In this document: in pieces, positions 7,410-46,347 of the stretch
Layout: each line of letters starts with the position of its first letter
How positions within the stretch are numbered: position 1 is the first letter of the stretch
From: Candidatus Dadabacteria bacterium
GTDB lineage: Bacteria; Desulfobacterota_D; UBA1144; Nemesobacterales; Nemesobacteraceae
Direction of reading: 5' to 3'
Length of the DNA stretch: 64,000 nucleotides
NCBI GenBank assembly: GCA_022822065.1
Contig: JAJECI010000008.1
Span: forward strand, 117,254-181,253
The notes under the pieces: model-generated
Seen by the model: only the letters and a program-made list of their open reading frames with translations
Database searches by the model: none
Told to the model about the DNA's origin: nothing
Program-made: the position numbers and the translations under genes

Positions 7410-7441
7410 CTGTTCTTAGTTTTCCGCTGCCTGTTAGGAAA

Positions 7442-7520
7442 TGGGGTGGATGACCGGATTTGAACCGGCGACCTCTTGGGCCACAACCAAGTGCTCTAAC
7501 CGGACTGAGCTACACCCACC
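7442..7520 (-). tRNA. tRNA-His (anticodon GTG), with encoded G-1 and 3' CCA
   Basis: The reverse complement folds as a cloverleaf. Acceptor gtgggtg/catccac, D-arm gctc-agtccggtt-gagc, anticodon stem cttgg/ccaag around loop ttGTGgc, T-arm gccgg-ttcaaat-ccggt. There is an extra 5' G opposite discriminator C, which is characteristic of tRNA-His. Confidence 0.85.
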
Positions 7521-7746
7521 GTCGAAACCTTCATTGTCTATGGGGTAAAAACCGAATTTGCTAATATACCGGCAAGCTCATTAACAGACAAATTGCCGAG
7601 AGAAAGTCATCAAGAGATCAGCCGTTAACCTCGGCAAGAGGCTATCAACTGGAACTATGCCCATTGAAACTCCTTTATCATACTTCCAACCTGCGCTTAC
7701 TTGTCGTTCCGTGGAAAAATCTGACCGTACCTAGTATAGTATTAAG

Positions 7747-33379: not shown

Positions 33380-35074
33380 TCAGTCCTTTATGTGATGTTT
33401 TTCGTGAACCGGTTTTATCAGAAGATTGCTTATCAAAGCGATTATTAATAACGCCGCCATCACATACATCGTCGAGTTGTACAGGGAAGCCGTCGGGTCT
33501 ACCGTCCCCTCGGGCGCGATATCCATGAGCTTCGCGAGCGTTACGGTCTTATTCTGCACGAGTATCTCGAGATCGTTAATTCCGGCTCCGAAAGTCTTAG
33601 TGAATTCATGCGGCGATACCTTTTCGGCGAGGTGGCGGATTTCGGCCATAAGCGAACGGTCTCTAAGCGAGGTGACCGCCAAGGGACCGAGCACGCCGGC
33701 GACGCTCCAAGCGGTCAGCAAACGTCCATAGATGCCGCCTACGTAACGGGTACCAAACAGGTCGGCAAGATATGCCGGGACGGTGGCGAAGACGCCCCCG
33801 TAGAAAGTAAAGATTATCATCGTCGCCGCATAGAACATTAACAGCCAGAGGATCGAAGGATTAAGATTCACTTGGTGGGCGGCCACAGGAATGGACAAAT
33901 ACAGCAAAAGACCGACCGCGCAAAATATCGAACACGTATTGCGTCGCCCCAGCTTATCGGAGGCGCTCGCCCACATAATGCGCCCCAGCATGTTGAACAT
34001 GCCGATCATAAAGACGTAAGTGGCGGCAAAGGTGACGTCAACAATACCCGGGAGCGTGTTGCTGAATATCTCGGTCATCATTGTCTTGGCGACAGAGATA
34101 ATCCCGATGCCGGCCGTAACGTTAAGGCACAGCACGACCCACACCTGGTAGAACTGAGGCGTTCTCAGCGCCTGATCCATATGCACATCTTTCTGACTGA
34201 TCATCCGCCTGCCAGAATCCTCGCCGGCCGGCGGCTCCCATCCTCGCGGTTTATACTCCGGAACCGGGACACGATACAGAAACGCCGAGACCATTATCAC
34301 AAGGAAATAAACCACTCCGAAGAGAAGAAAGGTCTGGGCGACCCCCGCGGAACCGGTGCCAACCACGTACACCCCGGCCGCTTCGGTTCCGGGCGCCAGC
34401 ACATGTGCCGCCTCGGCAGCCCCCGCGACAACAACCTCTTTTAGCTGACCGCCGACTTCAACAAAGCGTCGGCCCGAACGAGTGATCATATCGACGGCAT
34501 CAACCGTCCCCAGGTATTGAGGCGCCTTGTAGAAGTACTGGAGGAGAAATTCCTTGAGCGGCACCGCGATCATCGCCCCACCGCCGAAGCCCATGATCGC
34601 CATTCCGGCAGCCAGGCCGCGTCGGTCCGGAAACCAGCGAATTAAGTTGCTGACCGGAGATACATAACCAAAACCCAGACCGATACCGCCGATTACGCCG
34701 TAACCCAGATAAATCAGCCACAGCTGATGCAGAGTAACACCGAGGCTGCTGAGCATGTAGCCCCCACCCCAGAAACACGCTGCCATCACGCCGACCATGC
34801 GTGGTCCCACCTTCTCAACCCATTTGCCGGCAAACGCCGCCGTAAGCCCGGTGAACGCGATAGCGACGCTGAATATCCACACCACCTGGCGCAGAGTCCA
34901 GTCGTCCGCCGCGCTAGTGGCGACGCCAAGCACCTCAATTAACGCGGGATTATATATGCTCCAGGCGTAAACGGAACCAATGCACAGGTGAACCGCAACA
35001 GACGGAGGTACAACCAGCCAGCGGTTGAATTCCGGACCTCTAACGATACGTTCCTTTGATAAAAGACTCGCCAT
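33380..35074 (-). CDS. MFS transporter, oxalate:formate antiporter (OFA)-like family
   Basis: 12-TM MFS topology with a long central loop. Start is moved to MASLLSKER (35074) so the gene does not overlap tRNA-Thr. Confidence 0.7.
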   Translation of the reverse strand: MASLLSKERIVRGPEFNRWLVVPPSVAVHLCIGSVYAWSIYNPALIEVLGVATSAADDWTLRQVVWIFSVAIAFTGLTAAFAGKWVEKVGPRMVGVMAACFWGGGYMLSSLGVTLHQLWLIYLGYGVIGGIGLGFGYVSPVSNLIRWFPDRRGLAAGMAIMGFGGGAMIAVPLKEFLLQYFYKAPQYLGTVDAVDMITRSGRRFVEVGGQLKEVVVAGAAEAAHVLAPGTEAAGVYVVGTGSAGVAQTFLLFGVVYFLVIMVSAFLYRVPVPEYKPRGWEPPAGEDSGRRMISQKDVHMDQALRTPQFYQVWVVLCLNVTAGIGIISVAKTMMTEIFSNTLPGIVDVTFAATYVFMIGMFNMLGRIMWASASDKLGRRNTCSIFCAVGLLLYLSIPVAAHQVNLNPSILWLLMFYAATMIIFTFYGGVFATVPAYLADLFGTRYVGGIYGRLLTAWSVAGVLGPLAVTSLRDRSLMAEIRHLAEKVSPHEFTKTFGAGINDLEILVQNKTVTLAKLMDIAPEGTVDPTASLYNSTMYVMAALLIIALISNLLIKPVHEKHHIKD

Positions 35075-35122
35075 TGGCTGTATCACGCGGTTAGTCGCCG
35101 AGGGGGAACTGAAGTTACATAC

Positions 35123-35194
35123 AGCCGACGAGGGGATTCGAACCCCTGACCTGCTCATTACGAGTGAGCTGCTCTACCACTGAGCTACATCGGC
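35123..35194 (-). tRNA. tRNA-Thr (anticodon CGT)
   Basis: Reverse-complement cloverleaf. Acceptor gccgatg/cgtcggc, D-arm gctc-agtggt-agagc, anticodon stem gctca/tgagc with loop ctCGTaa, T-arm agggg-ttcgaat-cccct. Confidence 0.85.
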
Positions 35195-35370: not shown

Positions 35371-36822
35371 ATGAAATTCAGGATACACGAAATGTTATTG
35401 AGTCTGTTTTTTATACTGGCGTTTTGTTTTTCGTTCAGCACTGAAGCGTCGGCCCATGAGTACACCGATTCCGACGGAAACGTTTATACACACAGTGAAG
35501 ACATCAACATAAGCGCGGCGGACGTCGACCCTACAAATGAAGCTCAAATGAAGAAGTTCGTCCGTCATCTGGCCAAGCATACGGACCTCATTAATAGCCA
35601 GGACAAGCTCAACGAAACGAAACTGGAGAAATCAAGGGAGATCGTAATATTCGGAAGACGAGCCAGGGAAAGAGCCGGAGAAGGAGAAACCCCTAACGTC
35701 CTCAATCACGGTGATGTCTATAGAATCCTGACCTTAAACTTAATAGATGCTGTAGGGAATCACGGGCTGTATCCAGATCTCTACGGCCGCAAATATGATT
35801 CTTCCCAAGATCCGCTGAAAACTTTACTCGGCGATGACGTCCCCGAATTCTCGGACACCGTTGTTCCGCTGTGCAAAAGGTATGGCGAAGAGAACAGGGT
35901 GGCCTGCGCGGTCAGACAAGAGATCCCCGCGGGGCCGGTAACGACCATGGCGGGCTTTCATCACGCGGAAGACGATCCCGTTGTGCTAGCTCCCGACTGT
36001 TCTGATTTCATTCCTCCGGTTACGGCCGAAGAGGTCGAGAACGAAACAGATCTCGATAAGAAGAGAGAACTTCTTAGACAGTACGTAAAAGGCGTTATTA
36101 AGATCACCAATAAGATATTTGTAGATGCGGCGAAGATGTTTTTTGCAGATACGGGGGCGGAAGCACCCCTGACAGAACTACAACTAATAAGAAGACTACA
36201 AGCAGAAGCTGGTGCAAGGTTCTTCCCAAAAGCGCCTTGTTTTAGGTCACCTGATTTACGTCACGGTTCCATATACTCTTTCATTATGGACCCGATACGT
36301 GGAGTTTCATTTATGAACCCGAACGATCATAACCTAAACGGTCTAAGCGTTTCGCTAAATGACCCGGACCCGGTTCCGTATGACGATCAAGGGAATATTG
36401 AACCAAATGTCCTGGTCGCTTTTCAGAGGGTACTGACAAACACTCCACCACCAGATCCCCCCAACCCGAATAGCATAAAACATGGAGACTCAGGCTTCGT
36501 CACATATCACTGGGCCCATCCCACAAAAACAGAGCTTAACATCCCTGACTATCTCGACCGCGACGTGGTTCCCGGCAGAGCGATCAAGGAAAGCTATATC
36601 GAGGTAGCGGACCTATTCGATGGCGCTGATCCTCCGCCGCTTCCGTTGCCTGTCCCCTTCGTGTTTGGTTCCGGATTCTACCCGCCAGAAATGATGGCGG
36701 AAGAAGGCGATGACGGGTGTTCCATCGCCGCAACCGGCAATACGTCTCAAAGCGCTTTGCTTAATCTTTTCCTGATAGCATCCGTTTTATTCTCAGCCGT
36801 TATCCTGAAAAAGCGCGTTTAG
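35371..36822 (+). CDS. secreted acidic protein, family member 1, with a C-terminal Cys-containing sorting-like tail
   Basis: Signal peptide MKFRIHEMLLSLFFILAFCFSFSTEASA|HE with an AGGAG Shine-Dalgarno. C-terminus GDDGCSIAATGNTSQSALLNLFLIASVLFSAVILKKRV, which is motif, then TM helix, then basic residues. Closely paralogous to 37012..38409. Confidence 0.6.
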   Translation: MKFRIHEMLLSLFFILAFCFSFSTEASAHEYTDSDGNVYTHSEDINISAADVDPTNEAQMKKFVRHLAKHTDLINSQDKLNETKLEKSREIVIFGRRARERAGEGETPNVLNHGDVYRILTLNLIDAVGNHGLYPDLYGRKYDSSQDPLKTLLGDDVPEFSDTVVPLCKRYGEENRVACAVRQEIPAGPVTTMAGFHHAEDDPVVLAPDCSDFIPPVTAEEVENETDLDKKRELLRQYVKGVIKITNKIFVDAAKMFFADTGAEAPLTELQLIRRLQAEAGARFFPKAPCFRSPDLRHGSIYSFIMDPIRGVSFMNPNDHNLNGLSVSLNDPDPVPYDDQGNIEPNVLVAFQRVLTNTPPPDPPNPNSIKHGDSGFVTYHWAHPTKTELNIPDYLDRDVVPGRAIKESYIEVADLFDGADPPPLPLPVPFVFGSGFYPPEMMAEEGDDGCSIAATGNTSQSALLNLFLIASVLFSAVILKKRV

Positions 36823-37188
36823 GCGGAGGAAAATATTTTTTCGCGACTAATCCAGAGAGGAAAGGTTTGAGTAATTCTATTCACCCGAGCCGTATGGAGC
36901 TTTCACAGCCTGCGATGTTCGGTTGACGTCGGTAATCCTGTCAACCTAGAAAAATAATGTAGCAAGTAACTAGTTATAGGGGTAATTACCAAATATTGGA
37001 GGTAATATCAGGTGAAGTTCAGAGCACATGGAATGTTGTTGAGTTTGTTTTTTATGCTGGCGTTTTGTTTTTAGTTAAGCACTGAATCGTCGGCCCAAGA
37101 GTACACCGATTCCGACGGAAATATTTATACACACAGTGAAGACATCAACATAAGCGCGGCGGACGTCGATCCTGCGGATGAAGCTCAA

Positions 37189-38409
37189 ATGAAAAAATTC
37201 GTCCGTCATCTGGCCAAGCATATAGACCTCATTATTAACCAGGACAAGCTCGACGAAGCGAAACTGGAGAGATCAAGGGAGGTCATAATATTTGAAGGAC
37301 AAGCCAGAGAAAGAGCCGGAGAAGGGGAAGACCCTAATGTGCTCAATCACGGAGATGTTTACACTACAACCACTCTTAACCTTAACAGGGGGGTTATAAC
37401 GAATCACGGGCTGTATCCAGATCTCTACGGCCGCAAATATGATTCTTCCCAAGATCCGCTGAAAACTTTGCTCGGCGATAACGTCCCCGAATTCTCGGAC
37501 AACGTTGATCCGCAGTGCGTAACGTATGACAACGGAAACAGGGTGGCCTGCTCAGTCAGACAACTGATCCCCGCGGGGCCGATAACAACCATGGCGGGTT
37601 TTCATCACGCGGAAGACGATCCTGTTGTGCAAACCCCCGACTGTTCTGATTTCACTTCTCCGGTTACGGCCGAAGAGGTCGAGAACGAGACAGATCTCGA
37701 TATGAAAAGAGAACTTCTTAAACAATTCGTAAAAGGCATTGCCGAGATCACTAGAAAGGTATTTTTAGCTACGGCGTTGGAAGTGGCATCCAGCGTACCC
37801 CCAGAGGATGTAATACCAGCATCCGTTGCAAGGGTATACGAAGAAGTGCCTTGCTTTAGGTCACCTGGGTTACGTTCTGACTCCATATATTCTTTCGTCA
37901 TGGATCCGATACGTGGAGTTGGGTTCCTGAACGCGAACGATTTTACCCTTAACGGTCTAAGCGTTTCGTTAAATGACCCGGACCCGATCCCGTATGATGA
38001 TCAAGGAAATATTGAACCAAATGTCCTGGTTGCTTTTCAGAGGGCACTGACAAATACTCCGCCACCAGATCCCCCCAACCTGGATAGCATAAAAAATGGG
38101 GACTCCGGCTTCGTCAGATATCATTGGGACGACCCAAGAACTGAAGAGGATAACGTCGAGGGCTTTTTGGCAAAGGGCGTGGTTCCCGGCAGGTCGGTCA
38201 AGGAAAGCTACATTGAGGTAGTGAATTTGGTCGAGGGTCTTCCGTCCCCGCCTGTCCTCTTCGTGTTTGGTTCCGGATTCTATCCGGAAGAAGGCGATGA
38301 CGGGTGTTCCATCGCCGCGACCGGCAATGCGTCTCAAAGCGCTTTGCTTAATCTGTTTCTGATAGCATCCGTTTTATTCTCGGCCGTTTTCCTGAGAAAG
38401 CGCGTTTAG
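37189..38409 (+). CDS. secreted acidic protein, family member 2 (tandem paralogue); the upstream signal-peptide region 37012-37188 is in frame but interrupted by TAG at 37072-37074, so this is a probable pseudogene or phase-off allele
   Basis: Roughly 75-80% identical to the 35371 gene over its length. Same C-terminal tail (GDDGCSIAATGNASQSALLNLFLIASVLFSAVFLRKRV). GTG start at 37012 with a GGAGG Shine-Dalgarno. Codon 21 is TAG where the paralogue has TCG. Confidence 0.5.
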   Translation: MKKFVRHLAKHIDLIINQDKLDEAKLERSREVIIFEGQARERAGEGEDPNVLNHGDVYTTTTLNLNRGVITNHGLYPDLYGRKYDSSQDPLKTLLGDNVPEFSDNVDPQCVTYDNGNRVACSVRQLIPAGPITTMAGFHHAEDDPVVQTPDCSDFTSPVTAEEVENETDLDMKRELLKQFVKGIAEITRKVFLATALEVASSVPPEDVIPASVARVYEEVPCFRSPGLRSDSIYSFVMDPIRGVGFLNANDFTLNGLSVSLNDPDPIPYDDQGNIEPNVLVAFQRALTNTPPPDPPNLDSIKNGDSGFVRYHWDDPRTEEDNVEGFLAKGVVPGRSVKESYIEVVNLVEGLPSPPVLFVFGSGFYPEEGDDGCSIAATGNASQSALLNLFLIASVLFSAVFLRKRV

Positions 38410-40949: not shown

Positions 40950-42911
40950 CTAGGCCTCCCCTCGCGCGGAATACTCGTGAACCTCGTCAATCAGCCTCAG
41001 AACATTGTCAACCGGCGTCTGCGGCAGTACTCCGTGACCCAGGTTGAATATGTGCCCAGGCCTTCCTCCCACTCTGTCAAGTATCTTCCTCGCCTCTCCC
41101 ACGACGTGAGAGGAGGTTGAGAGCATTGAAACCGGATCAAGATTCCCCTGGACCGCAAGAGAACTCCCGGCCCTCTGCCAGCCGTCAAGAATGTCGACCC
41201 TCCAGTCAAGACCGATAACTCCAGCTCCGGTCTTTCCCATGAGTTCGAGCAGGGAACCGGTTCCGGTTCCGAACAGTATTACCGGAACTTCCGGAGGAAG
41301 GGCCGAGATAAGTTTCTTCACGTGCGGGAAGACGAATCTTTCGTAATCCGCCGGGGAAAGACAACCCACCCAGCTGTCGAAAATCTGCACGGCGTCGGCC
41401 CCCGCGCCCACCTGGGCGCAGAGATAATCCGAGATGCTCTCGGTAAGAATCTCCATGAGCCTCTCCCACAGGGAAGGATCACCGTACATCAGTTTTTTCG
41501 TGTTTACGTAGTTTTTCGAACCGCTCCCCTCAACCGCGTAGGAAGCCACGGTAAAAGGTGCGCCGCTAAAACCAATAAGCGAAACTTCGGGGGCAAGCGC
41601 CTTTCTCGTGATACGAAGAGCCTCGTAGACGAAATCCATGCTCTCGGGATCAAAGTCCCTCAGGGCCTCTATGCGCTTTCGGGTCCTAAGAGGCTTGGCT
41701 ATCACGGGACCGTCGACGCTTGAATACTCAAGGGAAAGCCCCAGGGGCTCCAGTATGAGCAGTATGTCCGAGAAAATGATGGCCGCGTCCACGCCGAAGC
41801 GGTCAACCACCATCAGCGTGATTTCCGAGGCCATATCAGGGGTCTTGCAAAACTCCTTGAAAGAAACGCGGGAGCGGGCCTCCCTGTATTCCCGAAGAAA
41901 TCTGCCCGCCTGCCGCATGAGCCAGACGGGAGTATAATCGGCTTTCTCAAGGCGACACGCCTTCATAAACGCCCCTTCGGAAGTGACTTCCCTCCTTTGG
42001 TCCTGCGCGCCGTCCCCTGACCAGACCATCTGCGTGCGGTTCCAGTTCCGGGTATCCACACCGTTTTTAAATGCCGTTCTTTTCTTGGCGAGGAGCGTCG
42101 CCGACCTTCTGGCCACCTCTCTCACCAGGTTTCCCATTTTCGGGCTGTCGGGCTCATAGTCAACGGATATGCCGTTTTCCCTGAGCGTCTCCGTGGTGGT
42201 CGGCCCGATCGAGCATACAAGCGCCTTTTTCACTCCCTCGATGAATTCGGCGACACGCTCCTCTTTGCCCGCCACCTCAAAAAGGTTTGATACCTGCCGG
42301 GAACTTGTGAACAGGAGGCAGTCCTCCTCCCCCTCGGATACGGATATTACGGCGTCGCGCAGGGGACCCAGATCCTCCGGAAGCGCCCACCTGTAGATGG
42401 GAATTCTTCTCACGTCGGCCCCTCTTTTCTCAAGAGAAGCGAGAAACTCCTCGTTTGAAACCCCGTATTCCTGAACGTACACGACTAGGTTCTCAAGCGA
42501 CATGTCCCTCTGGTCAAAAGTGGAAAGTATGTCCCTCCACGTGTTCGGTTCGGAAACGGTTATATCCGGTTTCATCCCGAGTTTGCGAAGGACCGCCACG
42601 GGTTTAGGACCTCTGGCAAGAATCGTCGTTCCGCGCAGGGCTTCGACATATTCCTTTTCTCCCGATTCCGCAATTACGATGTCGGAGAGTATTCGCGTTC
42701 CTACCCCGGTCATGAGAACAAGAAGGTCGATTTTGCCCGAGAAGAGATCATCGGCAAACCCGGCAACGTAAGGACTTTTAAGATCGGGGACTTCCCTCAT
42801 CGAGGGCGCGACCCTGGGCACGCCGCCGTGATAGGAGATGAGTTTTTTCATCTCCTCGCAACGGCGACTTTCAAAAGACGTTACCTTAAGCCCGTTAAAA
42901 CCCTGTTTCAT
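40950..42911 (-). CDS. hemE: fused uroporphyrinogen-III synthase (HemD-like N-domain) and uroporphyrinogen decarboxylase (HemE C-domain)
   Basis: The C-terminal ~340 aa carry the UroD signature PVWLMRQAGR and the rest of HemE. The N-terminal ~300 aa have the HemD (HEM4) two-lobed pattern. Total 653 aa. Confidence 0.8.
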   Translation of the reverse strand: MKQGFNGLKVTSFESRRCEEMKKLISYHGGVPRVAPSMREVPDLKSPYVAGFADDLFSGKIDLLVLMTGVGTRILSDIVIAESGEKEYVEALRGTTILARGPKPVAVLRKLGMKPDITVSEPNTWRDILSTFDQRDMSLENLVVYVQEYGVSNEEFLASLEKRGADVRRIPIYRWALPEDLGPLRDAVISVSEGEEDCLLFTSSRQVSNLFEVAGKEERVAEFIEGVKKALVCSIGPTTTETLRENGISVDYEPDSPKMGNLVREVARRSATLLAKKRTAFKNGVDTRNWNRTQMVWSGDGAQDQRREVTSEGAFMKACRLEKADYTPVWLMRQAGRFLREYREARSRVSFKEFCKTPDMASEITLMVVDRFGVDAAIIFSDILLILEPLGLSLEYSSVDGPVIAKPLRTRKRIEALRDFDPESMDFVYEALRITRKALAPEVSLIGFSGAPFTVASYAVEGSGSKNYVNTKKLMYGDPSLWERLMEILTESISDYLCAQVGAGADAVQIFDSWVGCLSPADYERFVFPHVKKLISALPPEVPVILFGTGTGSLLELMGKTGAGVIGLDWRVDILDGWQRAGSSLAVQGNLDPVSMLSTSSHVVGEARKILDRVGGRPGHIFNLGHGVLPQTPVDNVLRLIDEVHEYSARGEA

Positions 42912-44205: not shown

Positions 44206-44515
44206 GTAAATCCCCGCAGCTTGAAGCTAGAAAATCTACCCGAAAAAAACAGCGGAAAACAATCACGGAATCCAAAGCCAGGGAAAGCTCCGCAAGCCCG
44301 GGGCGCCGGCTATGCAATTAGCTTATTACTAACAACTCCGATCTCTCCTCTTGACAGAAACGACCGGTCCTACTATACTTTGCCGCTTATGTGAACAACC
44401 GGTCCTTGCAAACCGGCCCGCTCGAATTTGATTTTGAAACTTCCGCCGAGCAAGGAAAGGAAAGCAGAAAAAAGCAGTTTCAGGAGGAATTTTCATGAAG
44501 TCAGTTAACTCTACT

Positions 44516-44526
44516 CCCCCCCCCCC
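44516..44526 (+). repeat. homopolymeric poly-C tract (C11) seven codons after an ATG with a strong AGGAGG Shine-Dalgarno
   Basis: ATG at 44495-44497 preceded by caggagga. Then atg aag tca gtt aac tct act, followed by 11 consecutive C. Confidence 0.9.
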
Positions 44527-44609
44527 ATGTAAACCGGCGGCCTAGCTTCGCTGTCACCGGGAGTTTTCCTCTCCCTCTTCTTTTTCTCGCCCTTCTACTA
44601 GTCTCGCTG

Positions 44610-46124
44610 GTGTTGCTCGTCGCTCCACGGGCACAGGCGCAGAGAACCATCTGGTCCGCCACGCTGACCGTACAGGATTTTGGTCATAACTTTGGGCTAG
44701 GTTGCTCTGATAGAAGATCGGGCAAGGAATGCAGCAATAACCTCACGGATAATGATTTCACACATGGAGGCACGGATTATCTGGTTAAAGTGGTCTCTAC
44801 TAGAACAGTGGGGGTGAGCCAGCAGCAGGATTTAAGCTTTCAGCTCGACAAAGCAATTCCTCTGGGACTGACGTTGCATGTGGGCAGCAGTTCCTTTACC
44901 GTCGCCAGTGCAACTCTTAGCGATCCCGATGCCCTGGGCGTCAACAAGCTCGCAGTATGGACCAACACCGGCCTGTCTTCTTGGAGCGAGAACCAAAAGG
45001 TTTCGCTAAGGCTGGTGGATCCGTCCGCCGCGCCCCCGCCTCCACCTCCTCCGCCTCCGCCCGTCATTGAGTCCCCAGAAGGGGTTAGCCACAGCGGGAA
45101 CCCTAATGACGGTTTCTCCCTTACTCCCCTTGGAGAAGGAGGAAGCATTGTCTACAGAAAAAGAACTATAGATATTCCCGTCACCCGGGATGAATGTACA
45201 TCTCCCGGAAATCCCGCGCTGATCATATCCCGCAGCACACTTGACCGCGTGAGGGAAATTACCTTTGAACTCTCGGAAACTTCTCCCCAGGACTCTCCCC
45301 CCGGGTTTCGCATGGAGGGCTGCGTTGCGGAAATAGATCCGGGAATAAGACTCGGACAAAGAGAGACAGTGGCTGTATGTCTTCCTCCTGCTGATGTTAA
45401 AGGAGAAGCCTATGTTCACCGTTACGACGAAGAATGGAAGATTCTTCCCTCACGATCAGAAACCGTTAACGGAGAGGAGCTTGTCTGCGGGGATACAGAC
45501 TCGTTCTCCCTGTTCGGAGCTTTCCTGCCAGTGATTGAGTCAGCTGAAGGGGTTACCCACAGTGAAGACAAAGAGTATGGTTTCTCCCTTACTCCCCTTG
45601 GAGAGGGAGGAAGCATTGTTTACGGGGAGAAGACTATAGATCTTTCTGTTACAGGGGATGTGGGTTCTTCGGGAGATCCCGCAGTGATAGTCTCCCGCGA
45701 TGTTCTTGACCGCGTAGAGGAGATAACCTTCGAGCTCTCGGAAGTCTCTCCCCATGATCCTCCTCCGGGGTTTTATCTAGAGGGTTTCTCTGCGGAAGTG
45801 GATCTGGGAGTCACGCTTGAGCCAGGAGAGACAGTGAGTGTGTGTCTTCCGTCTTCCGGGGGAGATATTTACCGTTACAGTGAAGAACTAGGGGAGTGGG
45901 AAGTTCTTGAGTCATCGCGGTCGGAGACTGTTAACGGAGAGGAAGTTGTCTGCGGGGAGGTGGACGCAGTTTCCCTGACCGGAGTGTTTGTCGAGGACAC
46001 GGGAGGATGCGTCATTGCCGCAGTGAGCGGGGAAGGAGTCCCGTGGCGGGGAGCGGTGTTTAACCTTCTCCTCATCATGTCCGTGCTGCTGCTTATTCCG
46101 GGGATGAGAAAGCCTGGGGTATGA
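44610..46124 (+). CDS. proline-rich, internally duplicated cell-surface protein with a C-terminal Cys-containing sorting-like tail; the 5' end is disrupted (the true start is probably ATG 44495, which is in frame but separated by TAG 44543-44545)
   Basis: The ORF begins at the h-region of a signal peptide (..LLLVSLVLLVAPRAQA|QRTIW). Internal features are a PPPPPPPPPP linker and two ~155-aa tandem repeat units. C-terminus GGCVIAAVSGEGVPWRGAVFNLLLIMSVLLLIPGMRKPGV. Confidence 0.55.
   Translation: MLLVAPRAQAQRTIWSATLTVQDFGHNFGLGCSDRRSGKECSNNLTDNDFTHGGTDYLVKVVSTRTVGVSQQQDLSFQLDKAIPLGLTLHVGSSSFTVASATLSDPDALGVNKLAVWTNTGLSSWSENQKVSLRLVDPSAAPPPPPPPPPPVIESPEGVSHSGNPNDGFSLTPLGEGGSIVYRKRTIDIPVTRDECTSPGNPALIISRSTLDRVREITFELSETSPQDSPPGFRMEGCVAEIDPGIRLGQRETVAVCLPPADVKGEAYVHRYDEEWKILPSRSETVNGEELVCGDTDSFSLFGAFLPVIESAEGVTHSEDKEYGFSLTPLGEGGSIVYGEKTIDLSVTGDVGSSGDPAVIVSRDVLDRVEEITFELSEVSPHDPPPGFYLEGFSAEVDLGVTLEPGETVSVCLPSSGGDIYRYSEELGEWEVLESSRSETVNGEEVVCGEVDAVSLTGVFVEDTGGCVIAAVSGEGVPWRGAVFNLLLIMSVLLLIPGMRKPGV
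45063..45995 (+). repeat. two tandem ~465-bp intragenic repeat units (~55-60% aa identity) inside the surface-protein gene
   Basis: Unit 1 begins VIESPEGVSHSGNPNDGFSLTPLGEGGSIVY (45063). Unit 2 begins VIESAEGVTHSEDKEYGFSLTPLGEGGSIVY (45531). Both end ...SETVNGEE.VCG..D..SL.G.F. Confidence 0.6.
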
Positions 46125-46347
46125 CAGGAAGGCAGGGTCTGGATGAAGCAGAGATTTCAAGTCAGTTGAGGTTGATTTAAGAAAATTCCGGAAACCAATT
46201 AATTCAAAAGCCGGTCATTTTAATTCGTTTCCAGTCTGCATTCCGCAAATTTTGCTTGGACAAAACCCGGATTTGTTTTATAATGGTTTCGTTGTATCGA
46301 AAACCAGACTTCGGAGCAAAAACCTCTCTATTCAAGGATAAATCCCC

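Follow-up and report, generated by a model that had tools for sequence, protein, structure and literature searches.

The predicted surface-protein gene examined here raises the question of whether it is broken by a stop codon or held out of frame by the homopolymer in its leader. The gene lies in a 64,000-nucleotide (nt) stretch of a Candidatus Dadabacteria genome (assembly GCA_022822065.1, contig JAJECI010000008.1, positions 117,254 to 181,253), called the window below; its G+C content is 52%, and all coordinates are window positions. An earlier sequence-only reading had described a start codon at ATG 44495, a leader beginning MKSVNST, a run of eleven cytosines (C11) and, in the same frame, an amber codon (TAG) leading directly into a signal peptide. 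The gene is instead interrupted by a one-base shift of register within the homopolymer. We read the locus, with a probability of about 0.6, as a slipped-strand, phase-variable simple-sequence-repeat contingency gene that is currently OFF and is carried on an accessory cassette.

The landmarks of the earlier description are present in the sequence, namely the ATG with its leader, the C11 run (which begins 21 nt past the first base of the ATG), the 504-amino-acid (aa) open reading frame (ORF) called from GTG 44610, and a signal peptide ending in an AxA-type motif before QRTIW. The Shine-Dalgarno (SD) sequence AGGAGG is also there, at 7 nt from the ATG and not at the 6 nt given before. The frame connecting these landmarks is where the description fails. 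The ATG and the GTG, which is the first start in the 504-aa ORF, lie 115 nt apart, a distance indivisible by 3, and they are therefore in separate frames. At C11 the frame of ATG 44495 reads MKSVNSTPPPPCKPAA followed by the stop, and three-frame translation past the TAG gives LRCHREFSSPSSFSRPSTSLAGVARRSTG... in that frame, without an h-region. The signal-peptide-like stretch ...LLFLALLLVSLVLLVAPRAQA↓QRTIW (the arrow marks the predicted cleavage site) is present in the main ORF frame, which is closed upstream by TGA 44496-98, is open from 44499 and reads SQLTLLPPPHVNRRPSFAVTGSFPLPLLFLALLLVSLVLLVAPRAQA↓QRTIW. Because this frame is open back to the TGA, a +1 frameshift located in the C tract, and no nonsense codon, interrupts the gene. 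The peptide proposed previously, LRCHREFSSPSSFS joined to PLLLVSLVLL..., turns out to be a splice of two frames, and the gene, which had been held to be whole but for one amber codon, is shifted out of frame by one base at the tract. The TAG itself lies 17 nt 3' of the tract, derives from xxT AGC (Ser) codons of the main frame, and is kept in most family loci.

Tract length sets the register of the gene, as had been supposed, with the correction that loss of one C restores the frame and does not break it. Removal of one C from the tract (C10) produces MKSVNSTPPPHVNRRPSF…LLVAPRAQA↓QRTIW. At either C10 or C13, the ATG opens MKSVNSTPPPHVNRRPSF..., continues through the n-, h- and c-regions of a canonical signal peptide and then runs for 494 more codons, so that a one-unit change switches the locus between an early stop and MKSVNSTPPPHVNRR... 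followed by the 531-codon ORF. The frames 3' of the tract in the window stop after 1 and 5 codons, a pattern common to most family loci. The 531 open codons 3' of the tract show no second lesion, nor is there damage to the promoter, SD or ATG. The AQA↓Q cleavage site is predicted from the sequence; homologues that are in register read MKPVNSTPPPYVNRRRGF... (P0012) and MKSSSSTPPPLKNCRR... (P0015).

The length of the tract is far beyond chance. In the 64-kb window, counts of C or G runs drop about 4-5 fold per extra base, and C11 is the sole run longer than 7, the runner-up being 7. Dadabacteria loci totalling about 216 kb hold 15 C or G runs of at least 8, every one of them in a 5' leader of this protein family. 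The same gene encodes a Pro10 linker (45033-45062) with the mixed codons CCC CCG CCT CCA CCT CCT CCG CCT CCG CCC, and among the window genes no PPP other than that of the leader tract is encoded CCC-CCC-CCC. This codon usage indicates that the leader tract is kept as a homopolymer beyond a need for prolines. C11 was found in the window and in two more assemblies of the locus made with other assemblers, ENA metagenome scaffold_47 (99.98% identity to the window over 21,266 nt, with 4 mismatches) and a Logan contig (100% identity).

Tract length and register across the family

The window gene was compared with 12 further family loci, giving 13 leaders from at least 8 Candidatus Dadabacteria assemblies; the registers of L027 and L028 were derived from their leader sequences, and L013 was scored from its upstream ATG. 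An uninterrupted tract of C9-C12 occupies the homologous leader position, just past the first codons, in 13/13 loci. Its length is C9 in L008, L009, L010, L011, L012 and L013, C10 in L005 and L006, C11 in the window, L004 and L028, and C12 in L007 and L027. The best-conserved blocks of the leader alignment are the tract and TTCATGAA, a motif in the start-codon region that is nearly invariant among the 13 leaders, while the flanks have diverged.

Registers are mixed in both directions. Three of the 13 loci are ON (L006, L007, L008), four have one C too many and need to lose one (window, L004, L005, L028), and six have one C too few and need to gain one (L009, L010, L011, L012, L013, L027). The locus L008 is the positional orthologue of the window gene, lying likewise between lysA and exbBD, and is ON at C9 where its window counterpart is OFF at C11. 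For the window gene and most of the family, a stop follows the tract after 0-1 codons in one wrong register and after 5 codons in the other. The out-of-register alleles nevertheless retain ORFs of 514-955 codons past the tract, and pairwise comparisons among them give ratios of non-synonymous to synonymous substitution (dN/dS) of 0.30-0.48 at synonymous divergence (dS) of 0.36-0.78 in the gene body, with values of 0.36-0.39 for the window gene against the other out-of-register alleles. Given these ratios, the out-of-register alleles are not old pseudogenes, and coding function has been held over a divergence that would interrupt a neutral 9-12-nt run. The persistence of an uninterrupted tract in every leader, together with the avoidance of CCC-CCC-CCC in PPP elsewhere, indicates that the tract is maintained by selection.

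Some family members carry other arrangements. In the LRR-type locus L014, which comes from a long-read contig, a G10 tract at 529-538 lies within the signal peptide (MSSALSALRCALVCFALAFCILGGG followed by a stop) and out of register with a 1128-codon ORF, and a C9 run (400-408) precedes the SD by about 45 nt, a second mode of homopolymer placement in this family. A second leader type occurs in L004 (2709-2751), L005 (2775-2817), L007 (1959-2001), L009 (3834-3876), L010 (3213-3255), L027 and L028. It is without AGGAGG; ahead of MK...poly-C, an upstream ATG that is conserved and in frame adds M(R/H)FE(N/S)E(E/Q)SDL(R/K)(K/E)IF, and this leader lies directly 3' of a promoter-like TTGCTT/TTGACT-N17-TATAGT/TATAAT. 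This second type may be a leader peptide, a leaderless start or merely conserved DNA. A GTDB scan recovered 7 loci, and a scan of JGI metagenomes recovered only 2, both LRR-type with an ordinary leader that has no tract. A search with the restored 62-aa leader peptide returned no match, the word index limiting such a query.

Proposed phase variation and its alternatives

The mechanism that we propose starts from a cassette with its own predicted promoter, which would encode a secreted, C-terminally anchored surface protein. In its leader the ATG is followed by six codons and then by the poly-C tract, placed within the signal-peptide coding region, where slipped-strand mispairing during replication would gain or lose one C. 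A tract of C10 (or C13) would put the ATG in register and yield the full pre-protein MKSVNSTPPPHVNRR...AQA↓QRTIW.... At C11, the length in this assembly, translation would end after 16 codons at TAG 44543, and at C12 or C9 it would end at TAA 44530. The window gene would thus be OFF but intact, one C deletion away from ON.

PhasomeIt analyses accept poly-G/C tracts of at least 9 as a sign of phase variability (PMC5953494). A G/C tract of that length near the 5' end of a surface-protein coding region, one-base toggling, variable register and upkeep of the tract form the accepted signature of such loci, and the window gene is therefore read as phase-variable. For this family the frame arithmetic, the conservation of the tract, the length variation across mixed registers and the intact ORFs under purifying selection are all observed directly. 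Within populations, DNA slippage at the tract would then be expected at high frequency. Among the possibilities raised by the sequence-only reading, a contingency locus is the one best supported by the comparative data (13/13 tracts, C9-C12, mixed registers); the idea is thus upheld on grounds other than those first given for it, its amber premise being wrong.

Several observations weigh against phase variation. Tract lengths were read from assemblies, and heterogeneity within a population is the defining behaviour of such loci. All three assemblies of the exact locus have C11, and they probably derive from one shared read set. Only 3 of the 13 loci are in register, two of these on error-prone long-read contigs (1x and 15x) with other frameshifts, although 3 of 13 fits a random register (P=0.32, binomial). 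The five leaders of the form ACT-Cn-AT, for which the ON length is 10, have lengths of 9, 11, 11, 11 and 12 and never 10, which could mean that expression is independent of register, though a random register is also compatible with these lengths. The surface location and the host association are themselves predictions.

An expression mechanism that would be independent of register is recoding, in which slippage of RNA polymerase on the C run, or of tRNA-Pro on CCC-C, would restore the frame in a fraction of transcripts or ribosomes, by a +1 shift at C11 loci and a -1 shift at C9 loci, and out-of-register DNA would be the normal state of leaky expression. It would account for the 10 of 13 loci that are out of register with ORFs intact under purifying selection and for the lack of C10 in any of the five leaders just described. 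Whichever CCC codon of the window tract it occurred at, a +1 shift would enter the main ORF frame exactly. The sequence CCC-C is documented as prone to +1 shifts by tRNA-Pro (PMC7577736), and transcriptional slippage rescues interrupted genes at homopolymers (PMC4256274, PMC5009743). Against this, the offset varies (0, +1, -1) among members and is not conserved, and therefore no single-direction programmed frameshift fits the family. No stimulatory element was seen at the tract: the fold of 44480-44620 has z=+0.62, with 149/200 shuffles folding equally well or better, an Rfam search near the tract gave no match, and the 0-frame stop lies 17 nt past the tract, unlike that of prfB, which is at the shift site. 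In-register alleles also exist (L008, P0024/P0055), and to our knowledge the well-documented bacterial sites of RNA polymerase slippage are A/T runs rather than C runs. We consider recoding unlikely as the explanation of this locus. A more elaborate version, in which the start/poly-C/signal-peptide leader is, beyond a stochastic DNA switch, a family-wide regulatory cassette whose out-of-register expression by tRNA-Pro or RNA polymerase slippage responds, for example, to elongation factor P (EF-P), m1G37 status or growth state, is more speculative still. If true, such a slippage cassette would give the Dadabacteria surface repertoire with the common Cys-containing tail a tunable, low-level expression.

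The tract might also be miscalled, the true length being in register (for example C10), the assemblies off by one and the gene ordinary and intact. Every sequencing platform is prone to errors at runs of 9-12 C, other frameshifts do occur on the long-read contigs L006, L007, L027 and L028, and most loci are exactly one base off their ON length. The agreement on C11 among three assemblies and assemblers of the locus argues against an error of this kind, as does the occurrence of C9, C10 and C11 in Illumina-based assemblies of different samples, for which errors would be needed in both directions. With coverage near 35x (cov_34-37 in the names of contigs L009 and L012), a consensus error in most loci is generally unlikely. 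Even if some lengths were wrong, a pure-C tract set against the mixed codons used elsewhere would still call for an explanation, and we regard miscalling as a rather improbable account.

Were the window gene a pseudogene, the frameshift would be fixed in this strain, the gene dead and the accessory cassette on its way to being lost. The gene is out of frame in the window, and it is dispensable, being absent from the lysA-exbB spacer in at least 10 related contigs. Decay is nonetheless hard to reconcile with the single lesion, the open codons behind it and the intact expression signals, or with the dN/dS of the window gene, and a single-step defect that recurs at this tract in independent loci marks a switch and not decay; this explanation is accordingly very unlikely. 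An interruption by the amber codon only, whether read through by a suppressor tRNA or as pyrrolysine or left as a nonsense pseudogene, can be dismissed, since TAG 44543-45 is in frame with ATG 44495 but past it this frame encodes neither the signal peptide nor the protein, the 504-aa ORF lying in another frame by three-frame translation. With the TAG outside the protein frame, ideas of amber suppression or pyl genes are moot; the tRNA genes of the window, considered in view of the earlier proposal of a suppressor, are only His, Arg, Pro and Thr.

The accessory cassette and its surroundings

The features of the phase-variable gene proposed here are collected in Table 1. Its cassette interrupts a spacer that is otherwise short: at least 10 related contigs, among them L016-L019 and L022-L026, have a 239-bp lysA-exbB spacer without the gene, and the common flanks stop at about 44313 and restart at about 46247. 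The lysA-cluster members of sister strains likewise have no surface-protein gene at this site, and the gene is an accessory one. Other family members are inserted between lpdA and rpsT, between tRNA-His and a xanthine-uracil permease gene, and beside a yebC-type (TACO1/YebC-family) gene. The tRNA-His/xanthine-uracil permease site of the window (7410-7746) has no insert. The paralogue P0006 is on the same 285-kb contig as the window gene.

Table 1. Features of the poly-C leader, the gene and its cassette in the window
Feature	Position	Strand	Remarks
Accessory cassette, ~1.93 kb	44314-46246	+	Approximate ends; in lysA-exbB spacer; holds promoter, leader, gene and 3' flank
Sigma-70-like promoter TTGACA-17-TATACT	44351-44379	+	Predicted, from consensus match only (11/12 positions); present in L008
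Shine-Dalgarno AGGAGG	44482-44487	+	7 nt before ATG, by direct sequence reading; kept in L006 and L008
Leader start codon ATG (MKSVNST...)	44495-44497	+	Overlaps TGA 44496-98, the upstream closure of the main ORF frame
Poly-C tract C11 (proposed switch)	44516-44526	+	C10/C13 fuse ATG with main ORF; C11 out of register
Rest of signal peptide HVNRRPSFAVTGSFPLPLLFLALLLVSLVLLVAPRAQA	44526-44639	+	Main ORF frame; basic n-region, h-region and AQA↓Q cleavage motif (predicted)
ATG-TAA immediately 3' of tract	44527-44532	+	TAA 44530-32 is the stop of the other wrong register (C12 or C9)
TAG	44543-44545	+	Ends 16-codon product from ATG at C11; outside signal-peptide frame
Mature protein (predicted)	44640-46124	+	N-terminal domain, Pro10 linker, two repeats, C-terminal tail, stop codon
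Two all-beta repeats, ~155 aa each (predicted)	45063-45530 and 45531-~45990	+	
C-terminal Cys-motif, transmembrane (TM) segment and basic tail (predicted)	46002-46121	+	GGC[AV][IV]A[AS]...FNLLL..SVLLLIPG, then basic residues

The window protein has no credible match in Pfam or NCBIfam, the only hits being sub-threshold ones to LEF-9 and EcKL. Its homologues, where named, come only from Candidatus Dadabacteria assemblies, plus one record labelled Spirochaetia that is probably mis-binned. The N-terminal domain is variable in the family, and paralogues carry LRR, Calx-beta, SWM_repeat or other domains in its place. An AlphaFold2 model of the window protein has a mean pLDDT of 56, with the repeats at about 70-85. 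The best Foldseek matches of the repeats in PDB are ankyrin-G/B ZU5-ZU5-UPA tandems (6m3p_C, E=7e-5, with a TM score of only 0.17-0.21), a weak lead towards a ZU5-like beta-sandwich. The signal peptide with AQA↓Q, the all-beta repeats, the C-terminal TM tail and the LRR, Calx-beta and SWM_repeat domains of paralogues are all predictions, and from them we infer that the product may be surface-exposed and act in host or phage interaction. Sponges commonly harbour Dadabacteria, and together with the names of the metagenome-assembled genomes this suggests that the lifestyle here is that of a sponge symbiont.

Gene calling at such leaders is prone to truncation. The public call at the locus begins at GTG 44790; its 444-aa product (P0002) is without the signal peptide and has an incomplete N-terminal domain. 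Many database entries of the family start within the h-region (MLFAVLSLGAG..., MLALSVFAV..., MLLIAPRASA...), suggesting that out-of-register leaders may be common.

The same tripartite tail ends three window genes (36718-36819, 38305-38406 and 46002-46121). It consists of an acidic/Gly-rich stretch, G-C-[AVS]-[IV]-A, about 12 residues, [FL]N[LM][LF]L..SVL.. and a basic end. A profile of the tail matches 101 cluster representatives (50% identity), nearly always at the extreme C-terminus; the matched proteins are 50-1126 aa long and differ in their N-terminal domains. Searches with NCBIfam CTERM models gave 0 matches for the whole proteins (E<=1) and 0 for the tails (E<=10). The tail probably represents a C-terminal sorting signal, Cys-containing and so far undescribed.

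Two of these genes form a tandem pair (35371-36822 and 37012-38409) with about 87% nt identity, the second copy carrying a TAG and three substitutions in 26 bp. The TAG, in frame at 37072-74 within the signal peptide, had been cited as a second family case of a signal peptide with an amber codon. It is present in the window, but all 4 differences between ENA scaffold_47 and the window in 21 kb fall within 37073-37098, TCG replaces TAG there, and at these four positions the scaffold equals copy 1 of the pair (35371-36822). Since the ENA assembly has TCG, an amber codon in the signal peptide is not a recurrent trait of the family. The paralogue differences could come from strain polymorphism, gene conversion or assembly cross-talk between paralogues, and the TAG is a strain- or assembly-specific variant unrelated to the poly-C event.

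Two further observations concern neighbouring genes. The tRNA-Thr(CGU) gene (35123-35194, minus strand) covers the initial 36 nt of an MFS transporter ORF in its longest form (33380-35158, minus strand), whose true start is probably further downstream. At 40950-42911 (minus strand), an ORF fuses HEM4 (uroporphyrinogen-III synthase) and URO-D (decarboxylase) within a haem cluster that also has a ferrochelatase and an amine-oxidase-type gene; its start is ambiguous, related strains being called at 633 or 653 aa.

Relation to known systems

Homopolymer contingency loci are textbook elements of cultured, host-adapted pathogens (Neisseria, Haemophilus, Campylobacter, Helicobacter). Full-text literature searches returned nothing joining phase variation with Dadabacteria, nor homopolymer switches in sponge symbionts. 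Nothing comparable came up for this group in these searches. The noteworthy point is that the proposed switch belongs to a conserved leader cassette which an entire family of accessory surface proteins shares in this uncultured phylum. If length heterogeneity holds within populations, an uncultured candidate phylum would use the same strategy as those pathogens, one reusable leader cassette would serve diversified accessory surface proteins, some with LRR, Calx-beta or SWM_repeat domains, and ON/OFF states would be readable at the population level from existing metagenomes. In annotation terms, gene callers truncate these genes, and the family, its leader and its sorting-like C-terminal tail are unannotated.

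The tail can be compared with the PEP-CTERM, MYXO-CTERM and GlyGly-CTERM signals, a matter separate from the poly-C finding. Like them it would combine a short motif (here GGC[AV][IV]A[AS]), a hydrophobic helix and a basic cluster at the C-terminus of varied secreted proteins, but it matches no curated NCBIfam model and is a candidate signal without an assigned sorting enzyme. The known recoding systems (PMC7577736, PMC4256274) resemble the leader in having a slippery run at the point of frame change, with a +1 shift on CCC-C entering the main ORF of the window gene. They differ from it in that the offset is not conserved among homologues here and a stimulatory element was not found, and the run whose slippage rescues Citrobacter rodentium tssM is poly-A (PMC4256274).

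The phasomes of Campylobacter jejuni and Helicobacter pylori offer a closer likeness, with several homopolymer-bearing surface-structure genes per genome in mixed ON and OFF states. Their tracts sit in unrelated genes, such as those for glycosyltransferases, outer-membrane proteins and restriction-modification systems. Here the tract is found in one protein family and at one homologous leader position, the G10 of L014 being a second type.

In Neisseria, the pilC tract lies within the signal-peptide-coding region, as in the window gene. The genic examples pilC, with G(9-20), and nalP, with C(9-13), and the lgt and pgl genes resemble the window gene in three ways: a surface or secreted protein is encoded with a run of at least 9 G or C in the 5' part of its coding region, one-base changes toggle between full-length product and early stop, and the length differs among alleles or strains (PMC5953494). 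Dadabacteria differ in being an uncultured candidate phylum, where the window locus is known from assembled sequence and its switching is what we infer. The protein family and its C-terminal tail are also without described relatives. Finally, unlike the Neisseria tracts, the window tract is part of a conserved start/poly-C/signal-peptide leader cassette that recurs in many paralogues with different passenger domains.

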